From Nannocystis sp. RBIL2 (GTDB lineage Bacteria > Myxococcota_A > Polyangia > Nannocystales > Nannocystaceae): a DNA stretch of 64,000 nucleotides. The stretch covers positions 1,382,151-1,446,150 of the forward strand of contig NZ_JAPNJW010000002.1 in the NCBI RefSeq assembly GCF_026626745.1, written 5' to 3'. The position numbers and the translations under genes are program-made. This document shows, piece after piece, positions 19,703 through 62,457 of this stretch. Below the pieces are notes generated by a model. That model made no database searches. It had not been told where the DNA came from and saw only the letters and a list, made by a program, of their open reading frames with translations. How positions within the stretch are numbered: the first letter of the stretch is position 1; each line of letters opens with the position of its first letter.

Positions 19703-20275
19703 TCACTTCGCGCCGCGCGTCCGCGCCCGTGCCGGCGCCGGCTTGCCCCGCGCCGGCTTGCCCCGCGTCGGCTTCGCCCGTGCCGACCGCTTCGCCGCGC
19801 GTCGAGCCTCCGCCGCCGGCGCGACCACGCTCTTCAGCAGCAGCGCCGCCATGCGCCGGACCTCGACCTCGACCTTCGCCCGCTCGCCGAGCTCGGCGAC
19901 GCTCAGGCTGAACGGCAGGAACGCATTGGTCGCCTTCACCAGAGTCGACGCAGTCGCCGCCGCGTCCTCGACCTCGAACCGCCCGCACGCCACGCCGGCC
20001 GCCAGCACCCCGGCCACCAGCGCCACCTCGCGCTCCATGTGAGCTGTCCTTCGGGCCATGTACCCCGGCCGCACCGCCTCGAACAGCTCGTCGAGGCTCT
20101 GGCGGTACGCGCTGACGCTGTCGAACCGCCGCAGCACCCGCTCGATCAGCACCGCGCGCAGCACCTCGGCCGGATCGCCGCCCCCGCTCGCCAGCGCCAC
20201 CAGCCGCGCGTACGTCTGCGCCACCACCCGGTCGATCGACGACAGCCCGACCTCTTCCTTGCTCGGGAAGTACCA
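19703..20275 (-). pseudogene. TetR-family regulator, 5'-truncated (HTH domain missing)
   Basis: ORF 19703..20389. Recognisable TetR sequence starts at WYFPSKEE (the end of the HTH domain) at 20275 and continues as the ligand-binding domain. Everything upstream is the 3' end of the integrase gene in another frame. Confidence 0.7.
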
Positions 20276-20276
20276 T

Positions 20277-21326
20277 TTAGTTCGTAAACGTACGTTTAGA
20301 CCGCATCTGGACCACGTTGCCAAGCTTTGCCTGACCTTTGCCAAGTCGAGAGGACCGGGCCTCCAGCGCGGCGATGGCTTGCTTGGCAAGCGCGAGCTTG
20401 TTCACATGGACATAATACAGCAGGGTCGTCTGAAGATCCGAGTGACGGGCAAGAGCCTGAAGCGCGTACGGGCTCTCGCCGGCCTCGGCCAGGTGGGTGA
20501 GCACGGAGTGACGGATCCGGTGCGGCCCGCGGACCTCCACACCGGCCCGGACCTGGATCTTGTTCACGATCCACGCCAGCGCTTGATCCGTGGTGTGAGC
20601 GCGCCGTCCCCTCTTGGGCAGGAAGACGAACTTCACGTCGGGCCGCGTCGCCAGAAGCTCCCGGAGAGCTTCCTTCAGACGGGACGTCAGCGGGATCGTC
20701 CCGACCTCGCCCTTAGGGCTGTCCTGGAAGACACAATGGGAGACGTTCCGCTGGATCGTCATGCCCACGTCCCAGTTGATGTCCGACCACTGGAGGCCGG
20801 CGCATTCACCAATGCGCATGGCGCCGTCCACCAGCAGCAACATCAGGACTCGCTCTTCCAGGTCCTCGGCCGCATCGATCTGCTGCTCAAGCTCCGCCTC
20901 GGTGTAAACGTCCACCTTCTTTTTCTCGGCCTTGGGCCACTTGAGCGACGGAATCGCATGCATGGCTGGGAGCTTCCCCCGCTCCTTCGCCCAGTTAAGG
21001 CAAGCGGTAAGTTTCTGCTCCGCCAGCTCGATTGAACTTCGGACGCATCCACGCTCCATCATCCGCGAGCGAAGGTTCGCAAGATGCTCTTTCGCGATTT
21101 GGTCCGCACGGACCTTGCCCAGCAACGGGCCGAGGTCTTTGCGGTAAATGCTACGGTATCCGGATTGAGTGGAAGCTTTCTGATGGCGAATGTGCTCGTT
21201 GTCGAAGTCGATCCACAATTCGGCCAGCTTGGGGACTCTTTTCTCAGGTTCTTTCTTGTCCTCCTTCTTCTTCTCCGTCGCGTCTGCCTTGGGCGCGCCT
21301 TTGCACGCTTCCAAGAACATCTCCAT
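20277..21326 (-). CDS. Tyrosine recombinase / phage-type integrase
   Basis: 349 aa; the C-terminus GPHRIRHSVLTHLAEAG...LARHSDLQTTLLYYVH carries HxxR and the catalytic Tyr context. It has more A/T-ending codons than the flanks. The stop codon (20277-20279) sits exactly at the junction with the TetR remnant. Confidence 0.9.
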   Translation of the reverse strand: MEMFLEACKGAPKADATEKKKEDKKEPEKRVPKLAELWIDFDNEHIRHQKASTQSGYRSIYRKDLGPLLGKVRADQIAKEHLANLRSRMMERGCVRSSIELAEQKLTACLNWAKERGKLPAMHAIPSLKWPKAEKKKVDVYTEAELEQQIDAAEDLEERVLMLLLVDGAMRIGECAGLQWSDINWDVGMTIQRNVSHCVFQDSPKGEVGTIPLTSRLKEALRELLATRPDVKFVFLPKRGRRAHTTDQALAWIVNKIQVRAGVEVRGPHRIRHSVLTHLAEAGESPYALQALARHSDLQTTLLYYVHVNKLALAKQAIAALEARSSRLGKGQAKLGNVVQMRSKRTFTN

Positions 21327-22827
21327 CCCACGTTCCTCCGGACCTTACTGTACTGCTGCATCATCTCGTCGGTCAGCCGTCGCTGGCATTCCAGGTGCTC
21401 GGCGAACATCATCGAGCCGAGTTTCAGGATGGCCGCCATGGGCGCGAGCACCGGCTCGGCGGGGCGGACATCGGGGCCGCCGGCGGGCGACGGACCAGCG
21501 CTGGACACGTTTTCGCCACCGAGCTGCCCGATCGTGCCATCGATCCAGAGCCGCTTGCCCGGATAGAGTCGAAGGAACAGCTCTACCGACTCCTGCAACT
21601 TGTCCTTTGGAACATGCACTTCAAGACACGCGCGATCCTGAGCGTCGAGCAACCTCACCCCATGCACGGCAGCAACCTCCGCCCGAACACTGGCACTCGC
21701 GAACGGGTGCGCAAGTGCCTAATTTCGACCACCAACGCCAGTTGGGTGTCGCTTGAGCATCTTCGAGCGGGACCGTGGAGACGCGGTTCATCGCAATTTT
21801 GTGTACGCATTCCTGTGTCGATCGATGGACAGCGCTGCGCCGATTGCTGCACGCATTGCTCCAGCAGAGCTGTACGCGTTGCTTGGCGCATCGCCGCTGG
21901 ACGCTGTATACGTTGCAGTGCACAGTCACCTCGCGCGTGCTAGCCTGAGCCGTCGATGAGGGCGATGGCGTTTGACGAGCAAGGGGGGATGCGGGACGTG
22001 CTCGACATGTTCAAGCACTGGCACGAGTTCTGTCGTGCCACGGCCAAGGGCTTGGCGAGCACCCCGGATGACGAGCTCTTCGTAGTCCGGCAGCTCGGGC
22101 TCCCGAGCAGCCGGGTGCTCGCCGTCGTCGATCCCGAAACCCGGCACAGCCCGTCCCCTCGATCGCCCCCCTCACCACCGCCACCCTGGGCGGCATGTTG
22201 ATAACCTTGCTCGTCTCCCTGTTCGCCCGGGCTTCCTGCGACTTCCAGCTCGCCGGCCCGGTCAGCGAGGCCAGCGAGGCCCCGAGGCTCGTGCAGGCCG
22301 CGCGCAGCGCTCCGTGATCATCGCCGGGCGCCTCGGCTCCCCAGGTCCGAAGCGGGCCACGAGCGCGGGGCGCCTCGCGTGCCAGGTCGGCGGTACATCG
22401 ACCAGTGTGATGCGCGAGCGAGGTATGGACCTCGTCGTGATTACCCGGCGAGCGGCGCTTCCGACAGACTGCCGAAGCCCCGCTTCGCCGAGCTCGACGC
22501 CGAAAGTTCGGCCAGCGGGGCGCACGCCGGTGCGCGTGTCCTGGAAGCCAACCAGCCGACTGGAGCACATCCGTCACGTCCGCCCGCGGGCAGGAACTCC
22601 AGCGACGGGCAGTTCGCTCCGGTGGCCCCGGGGCGCCACGACCCCGGAACGGCGCCACGCGCGAGACAGCCAATCATGGGCCTCGCATCTCGGTGCGCAA
22701 GTACCACCGCCGCCACCGCCACGCATCGGCTGCAGCGGCACCAACGGCTCCCGCCCGTTTCCAGCGGCCCAATCGTGCGCAGGCGGGTTCACCGTCGACG
22801 AGGGGCCTCGACGTTGTACGCCCGCGG

Positions 22828-28311: not shown

Positions 28312-28600
28312 CCCCGCCCCATGTCCTGCGGCTCGGTGCATACGAAGATCCGCACCGACGCCGGGATCATCGTCGCCCCTTTAGCACGTCGAGCACGCGC
28401 CCGAGCACGTCGGCTTCGACATGGCCGCGGATCCGCAGCAACACGCGCCCCACCTCGATCTCGAGCACGCCGGCCTCGTTCGTCATCGAGGCGGCGACCT
28501 CCTGCGTCACCTCGACGAAGCCGGTGTCGCCCGAGCCCCGGCCGCGTGCATCGGTCTGTGCCGCGTGCAGAGACCATCGTCGCAGGGCACGAGGCACGGA
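28312..28600 (-). mobile_element. IS66-family fragment (3' part of tnpA/orf1 plus the first ~17 codons of tnpB/orf2)
   Basis: FVEVTQEVAASMTNEAGVLEIEVGRVLLRIRGHVEADVLGRVLDVLKGRR, followed by overlapping MIPASVRIFVCTEPQDMGRG. Near-identical to the IS66 copy at 51.1-51.5 kb. Homology stops abruptly next to the STAS gene stop. Confidence 0.75.
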
Positions 28601-43825: not shown

Positions 43826-44084
43826 TGCCGCGACCGGGCCACTTCGAGCCGCCCTAGCGAGTTCTCCGCCACGCTGGCCAGCGAGCTGGTTCCGGCGCGG
43901 GTAGCCCGCCGCCTGCCACTGCAGGGCCCGCGCCTGAGCCGCCGCCGCGACGCCCTGGTCGACGACTCGGACACGCGCGGGGCGATGGGCCCGGAGCGGC
44001 CCGCCCCGGCGTCGTCGTCGACCCGCCGCAGGTCTCGCGCAGCGAGCTGGCGGGTGAGGCGCTGTCGATCCCTCGCCTGCGCTG

Positions 44085-44176
44085 GTGCTCGGCGAGACCG
44101 GCGTCGGCAAGGAGCGCGTCGCCGGCGAGCTGCACCGCCTCAGCGGCCGGCGGGGACCGCTGCTGTCGATCAACTG
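44085..44176 (+). pseudogene. Fragment of a sigma-54-interacting AAA+ activator (Walker A region only)
   Basis: LGETGVGKERVAGELHRLSGRRGPLLSINC. The upstream part is frameshifted, and the downstream part is replaced by unrelated repeats at 44177. Confidence 0.55.
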
Positions 44177-44234
44177 CAGTACAAATAGCCGCGGGCCCAA
44201 TAGCAGCACGCATCCGCGCGGGTGGGGTCGGGCA
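44177..44234. repeat. 58-bp perfect inverted duplicate of 60533-60590
   Basis: The reverse complement equals GCCCGACCCCACCCGCGCGGATGCGTGCTGCTATTGGGCCCGCGGCTATTTGTACTGC, the 3' end of the Cys-rich lipoprotein gene 60171..60602 (PDPTRADACCYWARGYLYC). Confidence 0.85.
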
Positions 44235-44616
44235 GGTCGACTTGCGCAAGGCTTCGAGGGCCTCAGCGCGCTCGTGCAGCAGGCGCTGGGCAAGGATCCG
44301 CTGTCGGGGGCGTCGTACCTGTTCACGATTCGGCGGCGGACGACGGCGAAGGTGCTGCCCCGCCTGGCGATGAGCCGGCGAAGAAGAAGACGGGGCACGG
44401 ATGTTCGCTACCACGGACAGGAACGTGAGACGCCCGGCGAAAGGGGAAAGGGGCGCTGATCATGGAGGGATATGGCCGGCAGCAGCGGCAATCAGACCGT
44501 CAAACGCAGGTCAGGGGCCTCCGGAAACCGCGGCCTCATGTCGAGCGAGGCGCATGGCGCGGACGAGAGCGAACCGCCAGCGGACGCTGACCACGACGTA
44601 TTCGTGGCGGCCGACC
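44230..44616 (+). mobile_element. IS66-orf2(tnpB)-like fragment repeat, copy 1
   Basis: GQVDLRKGFEGLSALVQQALGKDPLSG..LFTIRRRTTAKVL. Same sequence as 60689-61014, except for a 1-nt deletion (near 44251) and a 63-bp insertion (near 44457-44519). Confidence 0.65.
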
Positions 44617-45018
44617 GCAGGCGCGTGACCTGGCCACCGCTCGCACGACTGCCCGAAGCACCCACGTCGCTCGGTCTACCGCAGCGCGCGAGCGAGCGCG
44701 CAAGTCAGCGTGACGCCCCGGCCGGGCTCGCGGTCACCGAGGAGCACCTTGCACGCTCGTTCTAGCGGACGCGGACCGTATCGGCGACGATGACAACGTG
44801 TCGTTCAAGACGTTCAAGTGCGGTCGCGACCTCGATCGCCGCCTGCGATCGCCAGACCGGGCCACGGTGCTCGCGGCGCTGGACGAGGCCGAGCGCGCCC
44901 CCCACCCCGCGCTCGAGGATGCCGTGTGCAGCCACCTGCTCAGCGAAGACTTCGAGATCGGAGGTCGGGCTGCCGAGGTGCTCGGCGCGATTCACAGTGC
45001 GGGGAAGCGACCGGAGCA

Positions 45019-45480
45019 ATGGCCGATCGATCTCGGCACGGATGGAGCCCCGAATCCATCGCTGCTACCTTCGATGCAGTCTGGGAGGAGGTGCAGGACG
45101 AGTTGGTCGCGGACGAACCGTCGTCGGCGCCGACGAGCATCGAAGCGATCGAGGTGGCCGTTCGCGAAAAGTTCGCGCCCGAGCGCACGAGCTTGCCACT
45201 CGACTACCGCCGTTACCTGGAGAGTTCGATGCAGCATGGCTGGATCAGCCGCAATGGCATGTTCCACCTGTCGGGCGCCGGCCTCCATCTCAATGGCTAT
45301 CGCCCCGGCATCGTGATCGCCTGGTGGTACGACGATCACTTCGTGTTTCTGGATCCGAGGGAGCAAGAGAGCGCGCTACCCATCAAGTACTACAACATCG
45401 ACGAAGACGAGGATCCGTACGGCGAGTACCCGAGCTTCAGCGTCTGGCTCCTCACCGAGATGCGACGGCGCAGGCCATAG
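45019..45480 (+). CDS. SMI1/KNR4 (SUKH-1) family protein
   Basis: In-frame part of ORF 44818..45480 from ATG 45019. LPLDYRRYLESSMQHGWISRNGMFHLSG and ...YYNIDEDEDPYGEYPSFSVWL fit the SMI1_KNR4 pattern. Confidence 0.7.
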   Translation: MADRSRHGWSPESIAATFDAVWEEVQDELVADEPSSAPTSIEAIEVAVREKFAPERTSLPLDYRRYLESSMQHGWISRNGMFHLSGAGLHLNGYRPGIVIAWWYDDHFVFLDPREQESALPIKYYNIDEDEDPYGEYPSFSVWLLTEMRRRRP

Positions 45481-45883
45481 CCGTCGCGGGCCGAGAACGC
45501 CCTCGGGGTACTGTAAGGTTTCAGCCCCTCGTCGCAGGCAGCGCTGCCAGCCGCTCGCCGCGTTGCTGTGACACGGCGATGAGGGGCACGGACTCGCAGC
45601 CCATCGGCGGCGAGCCGAAGCGCCTGGCGTCGAGGGTGAAGTCGATCGTCGCGCCGCTGCGCCGCGCCGTGCCGAAGTCGGCGGACGGGGCGCGGCGATC
45701 TGAGCGGCTAACGAGTACACCGTCGGGAACGCGTCGCCGTGCGCATCGATCACGTGGAACATCAAGCGGCTCGCCGACATGGCGGTGAAGCTGCGTCGGG
45801 TCAAGACGATCGAAGCTGCGTCGAGTACGGCAGGCCGTCCGAGACTGCACGTGTTCTTGCACAGGCCGTAGGCGAACCCGCCG

Positions 45884-46215
45884 TCACGCGCCGCGTCGAT
45901 CGCCCGCGGGCCTGTGCCCGCGGGCGAATTCTTGGGGCAAGACGGCGACTCCTGGCTCGCGCAGCGCGGCGCGGGCGGTGAAGCGGAGGTACTGCTCGGG
46001 GTCGACGCCGCAGACGATGCACGTCTCGATCAGCGAGTACATGATCGCCGCGACATGCGTGCCGCGCACCGATCTCGACCCGTAGTGATTCTTGCGCCCG
46101 AGCACCATGCCCCGCAGCGCGCGATCGGTGCGGTTGTTGCTGAGCGGGATCAGCGGGTCGTCGAGAAAGGCCGTCAGGCCGGTCCAGTTGCCCAGCAGGT
46201 AGCCGGGCGCATCCG
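45884..46215 (-). pseudogene. tnpC: IS66-family transposase (tnpC) 3' fragment
   Basis: The reverse strand reads ALADAPGYLLGNWTGLTAFLDDPLIPLSNNRTDRALRGMVLGRKNHYGSRSVRGTHVAAIMYSLIETCIVCGVDPEQYL. Confidence 0.75.
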
Positions 46216-46465
46216 CGAGCGCGCTGCGCGGGAGCGCCGAGGACGCCCCAACGCCCCAGCGCGCCGAGGTCGCCCCATCGCCCGAGATCGCCGAGGTCGC
46301 CGAGGTTGCCGAGGTCCCCGCGGTCTCAAGACCAGACCGAGAGCCAGTACAACGAGGCGCCTCAGGTCGCCGAGGTCGCCGGGGTTATGCCGCCGCTCCA
46401 AGGCGCCAAAGCCCATGTAGCCGAGCCGGCGCGCTCTCTCTCTAAACCTGTCCTTAAGGCGGCTT

Positions 46466-47008
46466 GTGGGCCTTGCAGGTCTGGTGATTGTGTTCGTGGC
46501 CGGATGGCAAGCGGGGCGGCTCCGCGGCGGCGCGGGCGAGGACGAGTTAGCCACCACCGCGGATGCTCCTTTGGAGCCGGCCAAACTTGGAGGCGAGCCT
46601 CTGGTTTCGTCGGTCGTTCCGCCGCCAGTGCCGCCGGCGCCTTTGCCCGAAGCCCAGCCGGTCCCTCCGCAAGGAGATCGCTCGCCGATTCCAGCCGATA
46701 ACCGACAAACGACGCCCCAAGCACCTATGAGAAAGGCTAAGGCCCGCCGCGCTCTCGACCTCGCGGACGAGGCTGAGGCGGTGATCCGACGCAACCTGCC
46801 AAGAGTACGTTCCTGCCAGGGGGCGCCGGACGTGATGGGCCTGCACTTGCGTCTGAAACCCGATACTCCCGCCGCTCTCGTTGCTATTGACGAGGAGGCG
46901 ATCGATCCAGGGCTCAAGTGGCAAACGTGCGTTCGGCGGGTCGTTTCTCTGTTAAATTTCCCGGCGGTTTCGGAGCCGTCTGATATTCGTCTGCGGATCG
47001 AAATCTGA
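46466..47008 (+). CDS. Hypothetical membrane-anchored Pro-rich protein
   Basis: 180 aa; N-terminal TM segment, PPPVPPAPLPEAQPVPP linker, small Cys-containing C-terminal domain. The region is visibly less G+C rich. Confidence 0.45.
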   Translation: MGLAGLVIVFVAGWQAGRLRGGAGEDELATTADAPLEPAKLGGEPLVSSVVPPPVPPAPLPEAQPVPPQGDRSPIPADNRQTTPQAPMRKAKARRALDLADEAEAVIRRNLPRVRSCQGAPDVMGLHLRLKPDTPAALVAIDEEAIDPGLKWQTCVRRVVSLLNFPAVSEPSDIRLRIEI

Positions 47009-47299
47009 TGATTTCGTGTCGAGCTACAGCCGCCTAGCCTTTGGAGGTCACTTCCACGCGAGGGCCGGCTCGTCGGAGAGACGCACGCGGACGATCTGCG
47101 CGCCGATCTCGTGCGGGCGGGCGGTGTCGACGTCGGGTTCACGCCGTGGGCTCGGGAGGGCGCCCTCTTCATCCATGCAACGCTAGAAAATGGTCGATCT
47201 TTTCTAATGTGGGTCTCTCCCCCAATGCCTCGTATCTGGGTCTTAGGAGGCGGAGCTCGGCGAGAGCTTCGTTTACAGCACCAAGCTCGGCGAGAATGA

Positions 47300-47869
47300 T
47301 TGCCGCATTGTAGTGAGCATCAATCTCAACCCATTCGAAACCGAGGCGTTCCGCGTCAGAAGCCACTTTATCCGCAGGCGTCGCCGGCGACCAGGCAGCG
47401 GAGCACCCGCCATGCCCCACTTTGGGTCGCCGCTGGACGGCGCGAGGGCGCCGAGGTGCCGGTGCCCACCGCCGACCCGCCGCGCGGCGAGCTGTTCGCC
47501 GTCGCGCTGCACAACGCGGTCGAGGGCTGCGTGTCCGAGGCGTTCGCGGCGGCGCTCGCGGCTCACCAGGCGCGCCACGCCGGGAGCCCCGAGCTGCGCG
47601 CCGTGTTCGCCGCGATCGCGGCCGACGAGCTGCGCCACGGCCAGCTGGCCTGGGATCTTCACACATGGCTTTTCGGGCAGCTCCCGGCGGAGCAGCAGGC
47701 CGAGGTCCAGGCCGCGCAACTGCGGGCGTTGGCGATGCTGCCCCGCGAGACCTGCGAGACCGCGGCGACAGCTCCGGCCGAGCTCGGCTGGCCCTCGCCT
47801 GCCCGCGCGCGCGTGATGGCCGAAGGGTTCGCCCGCGAGGTAGCGGCCGCGGTGGGCGCGGCCGCCTGA
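47300..47869 (+). CDS. Ferritin-like domain protein, probably 5'-truncated
   Basis: Only the C-terminal ~140 aa look protein-like (AVALHNAVEGCVSEAFAAAL...AADELRHGQLAWDLHTW). The upstream part of the ORF is low-complexity. Confidence 0.4.
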   Translation: MPHCSEHQSQPIRNRGVPRQKPLYPQASPATRQRSTRHAPLWVAAGRREGAEVPVPTADPPRGELFAVALHNAVEGCVSEAFAAALAAHQARHAGSPELRAVFAAIAADELRHGQLAWDLHTWLFGQLPAEQQAEVQAAQLRALAMLPRETCETAATAPAELGWPSPARARVMAEGFAREVAAAVGAAA

Positions 47870-56879: not shown

Positions 56880-58118
56880 ATGACGACGAGCCCCAAGATG
56901 AACGTTCTGCTGGTCGCGCCTATCCTCGGTGGCGGGGTGGAAGCGGCGCTGGAAGTCCTGATCCGAGGCCTCGAGTCACGGGGGATCCAGTGCGGCGTCC
57001 ATGCCACGAGCGGAGCCAGTGAGCGACTGGAGAAGCACTGCTCGCTGGGAGTACACCTTGGAGCATCGCGGCCTGTCGTGGTGGATCTGCTGCGAGGTCG
57101 CTACGACCTCGTCCACGCCACTTCCCTGTGCGTTCAATCCCCGACCATGGCGCGCCTGCTCCGCTGGGCGCACGCGCTGGTGCCCACGGTCTGCACAAGT
57201 CACGGGAGCGTGGAGATCGACGTCTCGTCCGTCCCTTTCGACGCCTTCACGGGGGTCTCGTCCAGCGCGGCAGCGGCTCTGCTTCTCCCGCCTGGAGAGA
57301 CCGTGCACGTGGTGCTGAGCGGCCCGGACACGGAGCACTGCCAGCCCGGCCCGGCTAGCCCCTCGGCCCGGCCGAGGTTGCTCTGGGTCGGGCGCACGCT
57401 GGACAGCGACTGGCAGTCGAAGGATGTCCATGGCCTGCTTTATCTGGTCGCCGAAGGAGGGTTGCGTGGATTCGACGTGATCCTGCTCGACGCCGAGGAC
57501 CGGAGAGAGGCCCTGGGTCTCTCGGACTGGCTGGCTGGTCGCGTCGACTACCGCGCCGGGCGGTACTCCAAGGCAGAGATGGCGGCGCTTTATCGTGAGA
57601 CCGCCGCATCCGGCGGCGCGCTGCTCTCCACCTCGCGCGACGAAGGTCTACCCATGGTAATGTTGGAAGCGTGGGCTTGCGGCTGTCCTGTCATCGTCCC
57701 GCGCCGGGCCGGGTTCGATCTGGTTCAGGACGGCGTGAACGGCCTCGTCTTCGAGCGCTCGGAGTCGTTCGCAGGTATTCGTCGTTGCCTCGACGCCCTG
57801 CGAGATCCGGAGATGCGCGCGCGTATCGTGGCCCAGGGCCTCGCAACCATCGCGGGGACGTGCAATCCAACTGCGATGGTCAGCGGATACGAGCAGGTGT
57901 ACCGGCGCCTCCTGGCGGAAGGCCGCCGCTCCCGGCTTCGCGCCGCCTGGCGCGACGTGCTGGCCCTCCCAGGCGAACTCCTTCGCGCCATCCCTCACGC
58001 GCGCTGGGCAGGGTGGGCCGTCAGCAAGCGCTGCAGCGCGATCCGCCCCTTCGCGCGGCCACGTGGGGCGGAACCGTCGCCGCGCCGCAGCGCGAGCGAG
58101 ATCAAGCCCGAGGGATGA
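56880..58118 (+). CDS. Family 4 (GT-B) glycosyltransferase
   Basis: Part of ORF 56757..58118 from ATG 56880. LSTSRDEGLPMVMLEAWACGCPVIVPRRAGFDLVQDGVNGLVFE (EX7E-type motif). Confidence 0.85.
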   Translation: MTTSPKMNVLLVAPILGGGVEAALEVLIRGLESRGIQCGVHATSGASERLEKHCSLGVHLGASRPVVVDLLRGRYDLVHATSLCVQSPTMARLLRWAHALVPTVCTSHGSVEIDVSSVPFDAFTGVSSSAAAALLLPPGETVHVVLSGPDTEHCQPGPASPSARPRLLWVGRTLDSDWQSKDVHGLLYLVAEGGLRGFDVILLDAEDRREALGLSDWLAGRVDYRAGRYSKAEMAALYRETAASGGALLSTSRDEGLPMVMLEAWACGCPVIVPRRAGFDLVQDGVNGLVFERSESFAGIRRCLDALRDPEMRARIVAQGLATIAGTCNPTAMVSGYEQVYRRLLAEGRRSRLRAAWRDVLALPGELLRAIPHARWAGWAVSKRCSAIRPFARPRGAEPSPRRSASEIKPEG

Positions 58119-58334
58119 CTTCATCGTCACTCGCCGAGCCGTCGCGCGCGCCCGCTAGGACACGACCGCGCCGCGTCCAGAGCGCCGGCTCGCAGCCCTC
58201 GCGCGTCAACCCCTCCCGCGTGCAGCGAGGCCGCCCTCGCCCTTGAGTTTCACGATTGGTTAATCCTTGCGCCGGATCCGAGAGTACGCCCGCGTCCCGC
58301 CGAGCACGGCCCGCGCGCCGGCCTCGAGCTGGAT

Positions 58335-58645
58335 AGCCTCGGCCTCCGCGCCGCCGCGGTCGCCTGCGAGAGGCCGATGTAATTCCGAATGAAGATGAAT
58401 CCGCCGCCGGCGGGAGTATCACCGTGCGCGGGACGACGGGTTGTCCCGCGCTCCCCCACACCGTGGCCAGCTCCAGCCAAAGAGCCCTTGCGCCCTCTGG
58501 CGCTCCGGCGGTACGGCGCCGCTTCTGCTACAGTCACTCCTGGGTCAAACGACCTCGGGGACCCACCACCACCATCACATCGCGCCGCGGTCACGCAACG
58601 TTCGAACCAGGCGGGCAACGCGCCTGCCAGCAAGGAAACAGACAC
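58335..58645 (+). promoter_or_regulatory. AT-rich box / 5' leader module, copy 2
   Basis: Box at 58372-58397, a 248-nt variable spacer, then AAGGAAACAGACAC before ATG 58646. Confidence 0.6.
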
Positions 58646-59029
58646 ATGACTGACGTTAACTCCAAGGGCCCGGCCCCAACTCAGGTCCCAGCGGACATGA
58701 CGGAGAAGCCCCCCGAGACGACGGCCGAAGTCCCAGAGCAGATCAAGCCCGACACCGTCGTTGCCGACGCCCGCGACAAGCTGCTGGCAGCCATCGGCGC
58801 CGAAGCCCAGCACCTCGCGGAGAAGTCCGCCGGCCAGGCATCCACCGCCCTGGCGGAGCTCGCACACGCCTTTGCCCTGGTGACCAGCCCCAACCCCGCA
58901 GCCGCCGGCTTCACCGCTGGTCGGCGATATGTGGAGGAGCTCGCCCCGCCTAACGGTTCTCCCATTGGCGATGACTACATCGTCATCGACGTGCCCAGGC
59001 CGGTCATCACCTACTATCCCCGTACCTGA
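58646..59029 (+). CDS. Leader-family protein (MTDVNSKGPAPTQVP...), helical ADARDKLLAAIGAEAQHLAEKSAGQASTALAELAHAF segment
   Basis: Part of ORF 58424..59029 from ATG 58646. Its first 15 codons and the helical segment are shared with the 59447 ORF. Confidence 0.55.
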   Translation: MTDVNSKGPAPTQVPADMTEKPPETTAEVPEQIKPDTVVADARDKLLAAIGAEAQHLAEKSAGQASTALAELAHAFALVTSPNPAAAGFTAGRRYVEELAPPNGSPIGDDYIVIDVPRPVITYYPRT

Positions 59030-59315
59030 GGCCAGAACTGCGCCTGCGCAAGGCCGCGGCGGGCATGGCGAATCAGTCACCGCCCCAGAGCACGGGGCGG
59101 GATAAGAAGTCGCGGCCCCACTGGACTGCAGGTCGGGAACACCAACTACATGATCACCAAGGCCAAAGAACAGACCCGAGATCCGGGCCCGGAGCTGCGA
59201 GCCCGAGCCTGGTCATTCGGCGCGCAGCGCGTGACGGGAGGCATGGCGGGCGGCCTCGATCTGCACCGGCTCTGGGGAGCTGCCTTAGACGGTGGAGACG
59301 GACGCGCGCGCGCTC

Positions 59316-59446
59316 GCCGATGTACTTCCGAATGAAGATGAATCCGGCGCCGGTGGGAGTATCAGTGCTCCGGCAAGGTCCCGTGAGCGGCTCGATTCCC
59401 CCCTGGCCTCACGCCTGTGTGAAACTCGACACAAGGAGACAGACAC
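59316..59446 (+). promoter_or_regulatory. AT-rich box / 5' leader module, copy 3
   Basis: Box GCCGATGTACTTCCGAATGAAGATGA at 59316-59341. CGACACAAGGAGACAGACAC lies before ATG 59447, alignable to copy 1 with indels. Confidence 0.6.
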
Positions 59447-60001
59447 ATGACTGACGTTAACTCCAAGGGCCCGGCCCCAATTCAGGTCCCGGTGGCCGAC
59501 AGCGCGATCCCGGAGGCCGAGGGCGGCCCTGCGGCACCCACCTCGAACGCCGTCGCCGACGCCCGCGACAAGCTTCTGGCAGCCATTGGCGCCGAAGCCC
59601 AGCTCGTTGCGGAGAAGTCCGCCGGGGATGCGTCCAAGCCGCTCGCGGAACTTGCCCGCGCCTTCAACAATGTGACCATCAAGAACATGATCACCGGTAC
59701 GTCGCAAGCGGACGTCGCCCTGCTCGTGGTGCCTGCAGACCGGGGAGGATTCGAGGGCGCCTTCGCGCGTGAAACCCAAGTGAGGCTGTTGACGGCCATC
59801 GGCGGCGAAGCCCAGCACCTCGCGGAGAAGTCCGCCGGCCAGGCATCCACCGCCCTGGCGGAGCTCGCACACGCCTTTACGCTAGTAACCAGCCCCAGCC
59901 CCGCAGCCGCACGGATCGCGCTCGCGCCCGCAAGCGGCCTCACATTGATGAACGAAGTGGCGATCGACGGGAGTGTGACGGTCACGGTTAGATATCTCTG
60001 A
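59447..60001 (+). CDS. Leader-family protein with duplicated helical segment interrupted by an eEF1A/EFL-like fragment
   Basis: [15 protein letters not shown]...ADARDKLLAAIGAEAQLVAEKSAGDASKPLAELARAFNN-VTIKNMITGTSQADVALLVVPADRGGFEGAF-ARETQVRLLTAIGGEAQHLAEKSAGQASTALAELAHAF. IKNMITGTSQAD is identical to eukaryotic EF-1alpha (bacterial EF-Tu has VKNMITGAAQMD). Confidence 0.55.
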   Translation: MTDVNSKGPAPIQVPVADSAIPEAEGGPAAPTSNAVADARDKLLAAIGAEAQLVAEKSAGDASKPLAELARAFNNVTIKNMITGTSQADVALLVVPADRGGFEGAFARETQVRLLTAIGGEAQHLAEKSAGQASTALAELAHAFTLVTSPSPAAARIALAPASGLTLMNEVAIDGSVTVTVRYL

Positions 60002-60170
60002 GCGTTCGCCGGGGCGGCGTTCTTCGCGTCTGTCGCCCCCCGAAGGTCTTCGGCGACGGCGCAAAGATCGACATCCGCGACTGTGCGGACGTTCCTCGCC
60101 CCAGGCGAGCACCTCGTCAGCGCGCACCCCGGTCGGAGCGAGTTTGGCGCGGCTGGCGTATGCTTCGTAG

Positions 60171-60602
60171 ATGAACGGACCATGGTGGCTCGCGCTCGCA
60201 GCCGGACTCTTCGCCTGCGGTCCACACCCGCCGCCGAACGACGGCATGACGGACACCGGTACTAGCGCGGTCTCCACCATGGTTGAGCCGTCCTCACGGC
60301 TCGATCACCCGCAGCCCGACATGCTCCCCCCGCTGGACTGCAACGCGCGGCCGGAGGTCGCTCCGGACACTTTCTGTGATTACATCTGGAACGGCTTCGA
60401 CCCCGGAATTGTCTACGCTTGTTTAGATGGCGCCGACCCGGAACCCTGCCCGGACGCCAGTGCGCCTGAGATTTTGACGACTCTGGAAAGCTGCTTTCAG
60501 TGCTGGATCATCGACACTGTCGGGACGTGCGGGCCCGACCCCACCCGCGCGGATGCGTGCTGCTATTGGGCCCGCGGCTATTTGTACTGCCCGACCGGGT
60601 GA
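60171..60602 (+). CDS. Cys-rich lipoprotein
   Basis: 143 aa; MNGPWWLALAAGLFAC lipobox; 10 Cys; C-terminus DACCYWARGYLYCPTG. Confidence 0.7.
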   Translation: MNGPWWLALAAGLFACGPHPPPNDGMTDTGTSAVSTMVEPSSRLDHPQPDMLPPLDCNARPEVAPDTFCDYIWNGFDPGIVYACLDGADPEPCPDASAPEILTTLESCFQCWIIDTVGTCGPDPTRADACCYWARGYLYCPTG

Positions 60603-60688
60603 CGACGGGCGGCGTGTCCGCAGTCCCGCGGGCAGGCTCACGCGGGCTCACGCGGGCACACCGCTCCGCTCGCCGTGCCCCGTCGTGA

Positions 60689-61014
60689 CGGGCAGGTCGA
60701 CTTGCGCAAGGGCTTCGAGGGCCTCAGCGCGCTCGTGCAGCAGGCGCTGGGCAAGGATCCGCTGTCGGGGGCGTTGTACCTGTTCACGATTCGGCGGCGG
60801 ACGACGGCGAAGGTGCTGCCCCGCCTGGCGATGAGCCGGCGAAGAAGAAGACGGGGCACGGATGTTCGCTACCACGGACAGGAACGTGAGACGCCCGGCG
60901 AAAGGGGAAAGGGGCGCTCCGGAAACCGCGGCCTCATGTCGAGCGAGGCGCATGGCGCGGACGAGAGCGAACCGCCAGCGGACGCTGACCACGACGTATT
61001 CGTGGCGGCCGACC
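60689..61014 (+). mobile_element. IS66-orf2(tnpB)-like fragment repeat, copy 2
   Basis: Same sequence as 44230-44616, minus the 63-bp insertion. Confidence 0.65.
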
Positions 61015-62322
61015 CTTCACCGTCGCTCTCACTCCCGCTGTCCGTGGCCGTCGTGGCTCGCCCGGCCTTACCTGATCGCCTACCTCGGTGACGAGGACCG
61101 AGCCGACCGCTACCTCGACCAAAAGCAGGCGCACTTCGCCTGCGTTGGCTATCCCCGCACACTCGAGGACCGGGCGCATGTTCTCTGCGACTCGGTCCTT
61201 CCGGTCGACGATACCTTCAGCAAACCCGGTATCCAGGGCAACCCTGCCGCAGCCAGGGAACACCATGCCGGCTGGAGCGCGGTGTTCGCCGGTGAACCTC
61301 CACCACCCGGGGCCGACCCGGCGTACTTCTTCGTGCACGAAGCCCTCGAGGCATGCCTGCCCCACGCATCCCCCGGCCTCGTCGAACGCCTCCGCAGTGG
61401 CTGGCAAGACGTCGCGGATGCCTTTCTTGACGAGGCCATCCACAAGACGAGCGAGGTCGGCGCTGTGCTCACCGGCGCAGGAGCGCCCGGCCGCCCCGCC
61501 TCGCCGAGCTGCTCGGCGCGCTCGCGCGGGTGATGGGCGACGGGGTGGTGCTGCGCGCGGTGACGACGCAGGGCACAGTCACCGCGAGCATGCCGCCGGC
61601 TGCGGTGGACAACCGGTTGCCACGCGCATCGCTGCCGCCGCTCGCGCGCCGCGAGGGGCGCGAGCTGTTCGACGTCCTGCGAGAGGCGTGGGCCCTCGCC
61701 ACGCGGGGTGCTCTCGCAGATGGACCGATCGAGTGCAGCGCGCTCGCGCGGGACACCGGCACGCTGGCCGCCGGGCCGCACGAGCCGCCGCCTGTCCCGT
61801 GCGAGCCCTTCGTGCTCCCGCCCGATCCGGCGCTGACTGACGCGCTCGCGGACATCGACACGAGCAACGAGGCCGGGCTCGCGGCGGTGCTCGTCCATCC
61901 CGACCCGCGGGCACGCGTCGCGCTGATCGACGACTGGGGCGACGTGCTCGGCCACGCGCCGACGTGGGCGCGGCTGCTGGCCGATCCGTCCCCCGCCGTG
62001 CGCGCTGCCGCCGTGCGCTGCAGCGACTGCCCGCTGCCGATGCCAGCGAGCGAGCGTCACCCCGGCGTCCGTGCGTCGTCAGAACAGGCGCACCCGTGGG
62101 AACTGGCGATGCTCGCGGACCCTTCCGGAGTCCGCCGTGCGCGCCGCGGTCGCGAGGAATCTCAAGGCTCCGTCCCGCGTGCTCTGCGAGCTCGCGCGAG
62201 ACCCGGTGGCCGAGGTCCGTCGCGCCGTGGCGTGGCCGCTCTGCCTGGCCGCGTTCTCGGGGTACCGCGGCGACGCGGCGGCCCGACGCGCCCTCGAGGC
62301 GCTGGCACGGGTGCGGCGGCCC
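61015..62322 (+). pseudogene. HEAT/LRV-repeat protein gene, disrupted (IS fragments at both ends, at least two frameshifts)
   Basis: Three frames must be joined: 60862..61533 (WLARPYLIAYLGDEDRADRYL...), 61530..62417 (LAELLGALARVMGDG... read through in the +2 frame; LVHPDPRARVALI, LLADPSPAVRAAAV) and 62071.. (SAVRAAVARNLKAPSRVLCELARDPVAEVRRAVA). Confidence 0.4.
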
Positions 62323-62457
62323 GTCGTCGGTATTCGCTGGGTCCTTCACATCGGCGCCAGGAGGCGCAAGGTCCCGGCCGAGTACGGCCGGTCCACGACT
62401 GCATGGCGCTGGTATGAGCATTGGTGCGTCGACGGCACATGGCAGCGGCTTGCCGCC
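62323..62457 (+). pseudogene. IS5-family (DUF4096-type) transposase fragment
   Basis: VVGIRWVLHIGARRRKVPAEYGRSTTAWRWYEHWCVDGTWQRLAA, a paralogue of the fragment at 50497-50819. Confidence 0.5.

Follow-up and report, generated by a model that had tools for sequence, protein, structure and literature searches.

Organisation of the two loci

The window analysed here is a stretch of 64,000 nucleotides from Nannocystis sp. RBIL2 (assembly GCF_026626745.1, contig NZ_JAPNJW010000002.1, positions 1,382,151 to 1,446,150). Positions are those of the window unless another sequence is named. The window holds two copies of a remnant of an IS66 family insertion sequence (IS), which lie in direct orientation about 16.5 kb apart. 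Copy 1, at locus 1, is joined on its left to a short inverted piece of a putative Cys-rich lipoprotein gene, and this composite abuts a decayed sigma-54 activator pseudogene. At locus 2 (60.2-61.0 kb) the lipoprotein gene itself is intact and copy 2 lies to its right. We argue that the composite at locus 1 is very probably a genuine product of an illegitimate, non-transpositional rearrangement, and that it probably arose by a strand switch during replication. The features are listed in Table 1.

Table 1. Features of locus 1, locus 2 and the neighbouring remnant, in window coordinates
Feature	Position	Strand	Description
Decayed sigma-54 activator pseudogene	43826..44175	+	Recognisable AAA+ Walker-A stretch at about 44070-44175, ending ...LLSINC at the junction
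Chimeric open reading frame (ORF)	44085..44459	+	Sigma-54 Walker A, antisense lipoprotein piece and frameshifted tnpB fragment; 'IS66 TnpB' in RefSeq
a', inverted copy of lipoprotein codons 122-140 (PDPTRADACCYWARGYLYC)	44176..44233	-	100% reverse complement of 60533-60590
CGGGC, overlap of a' and the start of copy 1	44229..44233	.	Exact, 5 nt; putative strand-switch point
Copy 1 of the IS66 remnant	44229..44616	+	tnpB fragment 44235-44358; tnpC-like piece 44359-44400; part of unknown origin 44401-44616, including the 63-bp segment 44458-44520
Separate remnant of the same IS66 type (type A)	45762..46243	-	Last 119 tnpC codons and downstream sequence, truncated at both ends, no right inverted repeat
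Putative Cys-rich lipoprotein gene, intact	60171..60602	+	143 amino acids, lipobox-like LFAC, many Cys
a, native donor in the lipoprotein gene	60533..60590	+	GCCCGACC, an 8-nt direct repeat, brackets it (60533 and 60589)
b, single-copy 98-bp spacer, absent at locus 1	60591..60688	+	Last 3 codons and stop, 65-bp intergenic stretch, first 21 nt of the left inverted repeat piece (60668-60688)
Left inverted repeat (IRL) remnant	60668..60696	+	28/29 nt against L001 5637-5665 of Nannocystis sp. SCPEA4; 24/24 against L010 5616-5639 of N. pusilla
Copy 2 of the IS66 remnant	60689..61014	+	tnpB fragment 60691-60819; tnpC-like piece 60820-60861; part of unknown origin 60862-61014, without the 63 bp
Terpene-synthase-like pseudogene	61015..61533	+	Profile positions 8-92 of 199 left

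Comparison of the two copies

Gap-free repeat finding, MAFFT and BLASTN agree on a direct repeat of 388 bp in copy 1 and 326 bp in copy 2. The copies align in blocks of 230 nt and 105 nt with 99% identity each (E 1e-112 and 9e-46). The sole substitution between them is C44314 against T60775, copy 1 has one G fewer (GG at 44250-51 against GGG at 60710-12) and 63 bp at 44458-44520 are found in copy 1 only. The computed alignments thus confirm the original prediction of IS66-like direct repeats with a 1-nt deletion and a 63-bp length difference, the start of copy 1 being 44229 instead of 44230.

By comparison with the parental tnpB genes of Nannocystis sp. SCPEA4 and N. pusilla, copy 2 has kept the ancestral frame and the ancestral Leu codon, and copy 1 shows the derived 1-nt deletion and a Ser. 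Accordingly the tnpB fragment of copy 2 is in frame and 93% identical to the SCPEA4 gene, and that of copy 1 is frameshifted by the missing G and carries the Leu>Ser change. The 63-bp segment is bracketed in copy 1 by the imperfect direct repeats AGGGGCGCT (44449-57) and AGGGGCCT (44513-20), which speak for a loss by slippage from copy 2 rather than a gain in copy 1. The difference had been read as an insertion; its length stands, but a deletion in copy 2 is more likely, a polarity taken from these repeats, as no outgroup copy was found.

The inverted piece and its donor gene

Immediately to the left of copy 1, positions 44176-44233 are the exact reverse complement of 60533-60590 (58 of 58 nt, E 5e-23). 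The perfect match had been foreseen, although one position too far to the right (44177-44234). It had also been described as the last 19 codons of the lipoprotein gene. It does comprise 19 codons, but these are codons 122-140 of 143 and are followed by PTG and the stop codon.

With a word-indexed protein search the lipoprotein was found only in Nannocystis sp. RBIL2 and ILAH1. An exhaustive HMMER search detected five further homologues with 38-43% identity, four of them below E 1e-10, and one weaker match that was not aligned. The lipoprotein and the five distant homologues aligned with it share the invariant motif CGPDPxRxDACCYW......C, which is followed by only 1-4 more residues. The 58 bp encode this invariant C-terminal motif and are therefore native at locus 2 and secondary, that is derived, at locus 1. 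The donor gene is whole at locus 2, including its family-conserved C-terminus. Furthermore, three contiguities at locus 2 must be ancestral: that between the body of the lipoprotein gene and the 58 bp, that between the 58 bp and the CPTG-stop ending, and that between the intergenic stretch and the IS left end. The lipoprotein family is very small and uncharacterised, with 6 other representatives among 1.84 billion proteins and no Pfam domain.

The inverted 58 nt, which lie within the chimeric ORF, are a perfect antisense match to the 3' end of this gene's mRNA. If transcribed, they could regulate that orphan gene in trans as a new antisense RNA, and a repair accident would then have given rise to a regulatory RNA. 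Neither promoter-like nor terminator-like sites were detected in 43.5-44.9 kb and there is no coding signal, so expression is unsupported and we consider such a role highly improbable.

Junctions at locus 1 and the chimeric reading frame

The overlap of the inverted piece with copy 1 is CGGGC, exactly as the original prediction had it, and an imperfect extension of this overlap brings the match to 9 of 12 nt. The prediction had also placed the truncation of the sigma-54 activator at this junction. The gene is indeed truncated, but at 44175/44176, the other end of the 58 bp. The Pfam Sigma54_activat match covers positions 22-61 of 168 of the profile and ends at 44175. In the six-frame translation, the part of the activator upstream is already frameshifted or internally deleted. 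The left junction plausibly used the dinucleotide GC: the native sequence there was probably ATCAACTGC, since sigma-54 activators read ...INCAA.

The ORF that runs across both junctions (44085-44459) is identical to the RefSeq protein WP_276604888 of Nannocystis sp. RBIL2, and the version in Nannocystis sp. ILAH1 differs from it by 1 amino acid. In RefSeq the name 'IS66 family accessory protein TnpB' is given to WP_276604888 and WP_346660407, and in ILAH1 to WP_276600770 and WP_346660492; the product is a three-part chimera instead. WP_276604888 and WP_346660407 can thus be flagged as a misannotated three-part chimeric pseudogene.

RBIL2 and ILAH1 were both sequenced with PacBio and assembled with HGAP, and they have been described as subspecies-level relatives of N. 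pusilla (PMC10435759). Repeats can mislead assemblers, and a chimeric consensus would be one way to obtain such a patch; nothing specific to this locus points in that direction. The same chimeric protein, with the frameshift and the Ser, is present in two separately isolated and assembled strains, and PacBio long reads easily span repeats of 0.4 kb. We therefore take an assembly artefact to be next to impossible. From the presence of the chimeric ORF in two PacBio-assembled strains it also follows that the junctions are older than the split of the two isolates.

The repeated unit is a dead IS66 remnant

As a reference we used the intact 3.6-kb IS66 element of Nannocystis sp. SCPEA4 (L001 5631-9262), which has 29-nt inverted repeats (GTACATGCTCGCCGTGCCCCGTCGTGACG). 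The repeat had been called IS66-orf2-like. This is correct for its tnpB part, which spans about 130 bp (44235-44358 and 60691-60819 only), but the repeat as a whole is a mosaic. The Pfam TnpB_IS66 match is likewise limited to profile positions 8-50 of 101. Positions 60691-60819 are 93% identical to the reference tnpB over 129 nt, and 60820-60861 resemble a tnpC stretch located 450 bp further on in the reference (82% over about 45 nt, PPGDEPAKKKTGHG compared to PPGVEPPQKPKTGHG). The second reference IS66, in N. pusilla, gives the same picture. The deletion junction between tnpB (6172) and tnpC (6624) is common to both copies. The outermost 6 nt of the inverted repeat are absent from the IRL remnant. 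The repeated unit is thus a dead, internally deleted IS66 remnant consisting of an IRL piece, tnpB codons of about 10-57, about 14 tnpC codons and a foreign tail of 153-216 bp.

The tail, 153 bp long in copy 2 and 216 bp in copy 1, has no Pfam family in any frame and no coding bias. Its alignment scores with tnpC of the two Nannocystis IS66 copies equal those of shuffled sequences, and its exact 24-mers had no match in the genome or metagenome contig collections. A DNA match of 63% identity to another IS66 tnpA was dropped as it had no support at the protein level. For the tnpB part, the scan with a 23-mer found only a 72-bp fragment in N. exedens plus unrelated matches in Sorangium and others, and the plasmid collection held only distant tnpB matches.

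Two terminal inverted repeats and the tnpA, tnpB and tnpC (DDE transposase) frames belong to a functional IS66 element. Here only a partial IRL is left, at copy 2 only, and the coding parts are reduced to TnpB positions 8-50 of 101 and about 14 codons of tnpC, with no tnpA. No right inverted repeat (IRR) was found within the window, and no second match to the inverted repeat with up to 3 mismatches anywhere in it. Copy 2 keeps 21 nt more of the IRL (60668-60688) than copy 1, the left edge of which falls within the IRL. Since the ends of the element are missing or truncated, no pair of flanks can be compared for the 8-bp target duplication. The repeat does not resemble a miniature inverted-repeat transposable element (MITE) derived from IS66 either, as it has no right end, there are two copies in the window and the 24-mers are without a match in the collections. 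An inversion by intramolecular replicative transposition also does not agree with the data, because the remnant copies are direct and the boundary of copy 1 lies inside the IRL.

The repeat contains IS66 tnpB, tnpC and IRL sequence and RefSeq names the ORF TnpB, so one might assume that ordinary IS66 transposition left two IS copies that decayed in parallel, and that the inverted 58 bp are unrelated noise. Independent decay would not share breakpoints, however, and the two copies agree in their internal deletion junctions and in the non-IS tail. In addition, the boundary of copy 1 lies inside the IRL with no IRR present, and an inverted match of 58 of 58 nt (E 5e-23) is hardly noise. This explanation is thus very improbable. 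The shared tnpB-tnpC deletion junction and the shared non-IS tail date the duplication to a time when the element no longer had its ends or its transposase. It is well supported by these sequence features that copy 1 was not made by transposition. The original prediction had set the event apart from simple transposition and is borne out by the copy 1 edge inside the IRL, the missing IRR in the window and the common deletion junction.

IS66 family elements have the gene order tnpA-tnpB-tnpC, inverted repeats of about 20-30 bp and an 8-bp target duplication. The repeat derives from such an element, as seen in its tnpB (93% over 129 nt), IRL (28/29) and tnpC (about 82% over 45 nt) parts. Unlike these elements, it has no transposase, right end or tnpA, its left end is truncated, it includes a non-IS tail of 153-216 bp and it was copied passively.

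Origin of the mosaic patch

An inversion or template-switch type of event had been predicted. A plain inversion is excluded, as an inversion duplicates no sequence. An inversion with staggered breaks would duplicate sequence, but undoing it would part the 58 bp from their native CPTG-stop ending, which is intact at locus 2. The template switch does fit the anatomy. Such an event leaves a microhomology of about 2-15 nt at the breakpoint, and the 5 nt of CGGGC, with the 9/12 extension, lie in this range; both a formula and a simulation on this window put the share of random joins with at least 5 nt of microhomology at about 1% (chance about 0.01). It also uses nearby templates including the opposite strand. 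The donors 60533-60590 (inverted) and 60689-61014 (direct) are separated by only 98 bp, a gap for which about 90 bp had been given. The intact lipoprotein gene at locus 2 agrees with a donor that was copied and not cut out. Many other scrambled IS66 pieces nearby indicate that this is a rearrangement-prone zone.

We therefore favour, with a probability of about 0.6, that the 441-bp mosaic patch (44176-44616) came from a replicative, microhomology-mediated strand switch, either a fold-back or an event similar to break-induced replication mediated by microhomology (MMBIR) or fork stalling and template switching (FoSTeS). The mechanism and the order of the switches are read from the sequence, which alone cannot prove them. 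Locus 2 would be the older site, composed of the intact lipoprotein gene, the 65-bp intergenic stretch and an IS66 element, which may have decayed in place through internal deletions to a non-mobile remnant. Later, the patch would have been synthesised off locus 2 and fixed in the already decayed sigma-54 pseudogene 16.5 kb away. In this process a growing 3' end may have copied the 3' region of the lipoprotein gene backwards, from 60590 to 60533, then annealed to the opposite strand via CGGGC at a distance of 156 bp, and resumed copying forwards through the IS66 remnant from 60694 onward. The strand switch could have been a fold-back of the strand on itself (snap-back) or a jump between fork arms or a break-induced one, and at least one further junction would lie on each side of the patch. 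Afterwards copy 1 would have gained the 1-nt deletion and the Leu>Ser change, and copy 2 probably lost its 63 bp by slippage between the AGGGGC(G)CT repeats.

Templated insertions by MMBIR/FoSTeS (PMC8421209) and template switching between short inverted repeats (PMC8604942) are known. The patch shares with these cases the 5-nt microhomology, donors within a few hundred bp on opposite strands, several junctions per patch and an inverted segment that abuts a direct one. It differs from them, as they are mostly from eukaryotes and experimental systems, in that it belongs to a bacterial chromosome and is 16.5 kb distant from its template, and that the process is deduced from its product. Snap-back junctions are also reported, by Kugelberg, Reams and Roth, for tandem inversion duplications (TID) in Salmonella. 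There, a 3' end loops back at a short quasi-palindrome and uses its own strand as template, which gives an inverted-to-direct join as at locus 1, and later deletions make the join asymmetric. Unlike a Salmonella TID, locus 1 has no triplicated and centrally inverted segment and only 58 bp of inverted material remain. Moreover, the parental order of native piece, spacer and IS66 remnant lies to the right of the junction and not on the other side, as expected from the TID model.

Two other routes to the same patch have to be considered. In the first, a larger block with the lipoprotein 3' end, the spacer and the IS66 remnant was duplicated directly to locus 1, after which a local inversion of the 58 bp and a deletion of the 98-bp spacer took place and the flanks were trimmed by other deletions. 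The many independent IS66 deletions and inversions in the region agree with such a history, and the 8-nt direct repeat GCCCGACC around the 58 bp could guide local slippage. On the other hand this route needs more events, no spacer or further lipoprotein sequence could be traced at locus 1 and this route, too, would involve a strand switch by microhomology at CGGGC in its local step, so we rate it as rather unlikely.

In the second, end joining, by Ku/LigD non-homologous end joining (NHEJ) or an alternative pathway, closed a double-strand break in the sigma-54 pseudogene by means of two loose fragments of locus 2, which were ligated at short overlaps. Short unrelated fragments make up the mosaic of locus 1, and the overlap between the inverted piece and copy 1 is short, as would be expected for such a repair. 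However, the two fragments come from sites 98 bp apart, have opposite orientation and meet at a homology of 5 nt (9/12), for which a single polymerase switching strands is the simpler explanation. To our knowledge the capture of a fragment of about 390 bp is not a documented outcome of bacterial NHEJ. End joining is thus quite unlikely.

Some observations weigh against the strand switch or limit how much of it can be read. No pre-event allele was recovered, as the N. pusilla homologue of the DUF1653 gene (84% identical) is in an unrelated, non-syntenic context. The microhomology is readable only at the junction between the inverted piece and copy 1; at 44175/44176 and 44616/44617 there is no pre-event allele for comparison. 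On its right, copy 2 also ends in a junction, with the truncated terpene-synthase pseudogene, which probably lost its 5' end to this boundary; locus 2 is therefore not in its original state. A third donor copy that was lost is possible. The minus strand of 60520-60710 does not exceed shuffled sequences in fold-back potential (z = -0.09); given this lack of unusual self-folding in the donor strand, we do not claim a structure-driven event. Finally, break-and-join repair with captured fragments would yield the same end product.

Neighbourhood

The region of 43.8-63 kb is a junkyard of IS66 remnants, IS5-like fragments, truncated sigma-54 and terpene-synthase genes and orphan genes. In such debris, rearrangement scars are to be expected.

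The tnpC remnant at 45762-46243 has 87% amino acid identity to N. pusilla and is located 1.15 kb to the right of copy 1 in opposite orientation. An origin of copy 1 or copy 2 and this inverted remnant from one IS that an inversion broke up is unsupported: the tail of the copies is not tnpC, and there is neither continuity nor an IRR. Immediately to the right of the remnant, 46234-46386 contains tandem repeats of 9 nt and 27 nt (GCCGAGGTC-like). The IS66 type of the remnant is also scrambled in N. pusilla and is found there within an array of Rhs-toxin, SMI1_KNR4 and SUKH-3 immunity genes (L010 4854-7474), where its tnpC is fused to a SUKH-3 domain. An ORF to the right of copy 1 (about 45015-45470) looks SMI1/SUKH-like by eye (LPLDYRRYLE...), with no Pfam match.

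A different (type-B) IS66 element at 51128-53790 is scrambled by an internal inversion. Its tnpA and tnpB are on the plus strand, two tnpC pieces are inverted (52058-51789 and 53154-52903) and the tnpC C-terminus is back on the plus strand (53221-53790). It contains an 87-nt inverted repeat (51327-51413 and 52827-52913, 89%). An inverted copy of its tnpA/tnpB junction region (51214-51479) with 87% identity lies 23 kb away at 28312-28577. More IS debris is the inverted repeat with 79% identity between 50633-50758 and 62321-62446, with the right arm in an ORF that matches DUF4096 (IS4/IS5 transposase).

The 5' regions of three small genes (54036-54245, 58325-58709 and 59316-59510) are paralogous, with a common upstream element and start; one of the genes has a weak S1-domain match. 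Together with a 126-nt repeat of 93% identity (58780-58905 and 59785-59910), they make up a local array of paralogues just to the left of the lipoprotein gene. Low-GC patches are found at 48598-50151 (0.635) and 20001-22000 (0.627), compared with 0.70 overall; the former holds a gene with a jacalin-like lectin domain that may be horizontally acquired.

Implications

The kind of event is well known; the instance is new and unusually legible. As a scar it is ordinary, of low general interest, and it opens no new biological question. Its consequences are limited to one misannotated chimeric 'TnpB' and to latent recombination substrates, since the 0.3-kb direct and 58-bp inverted repeats could serve for later deletion or inversion of the 16-kb segment. 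For Nannocystis, the locus provides a clean natural case, resolved to the nucleotide and kept in two isolates, of what is probably a microhomology-mediated strand-switching rearrangement in a large myxobacterial genome. For the IS66 family, it illustrates that dead IS fragments can still be duplicated passively.

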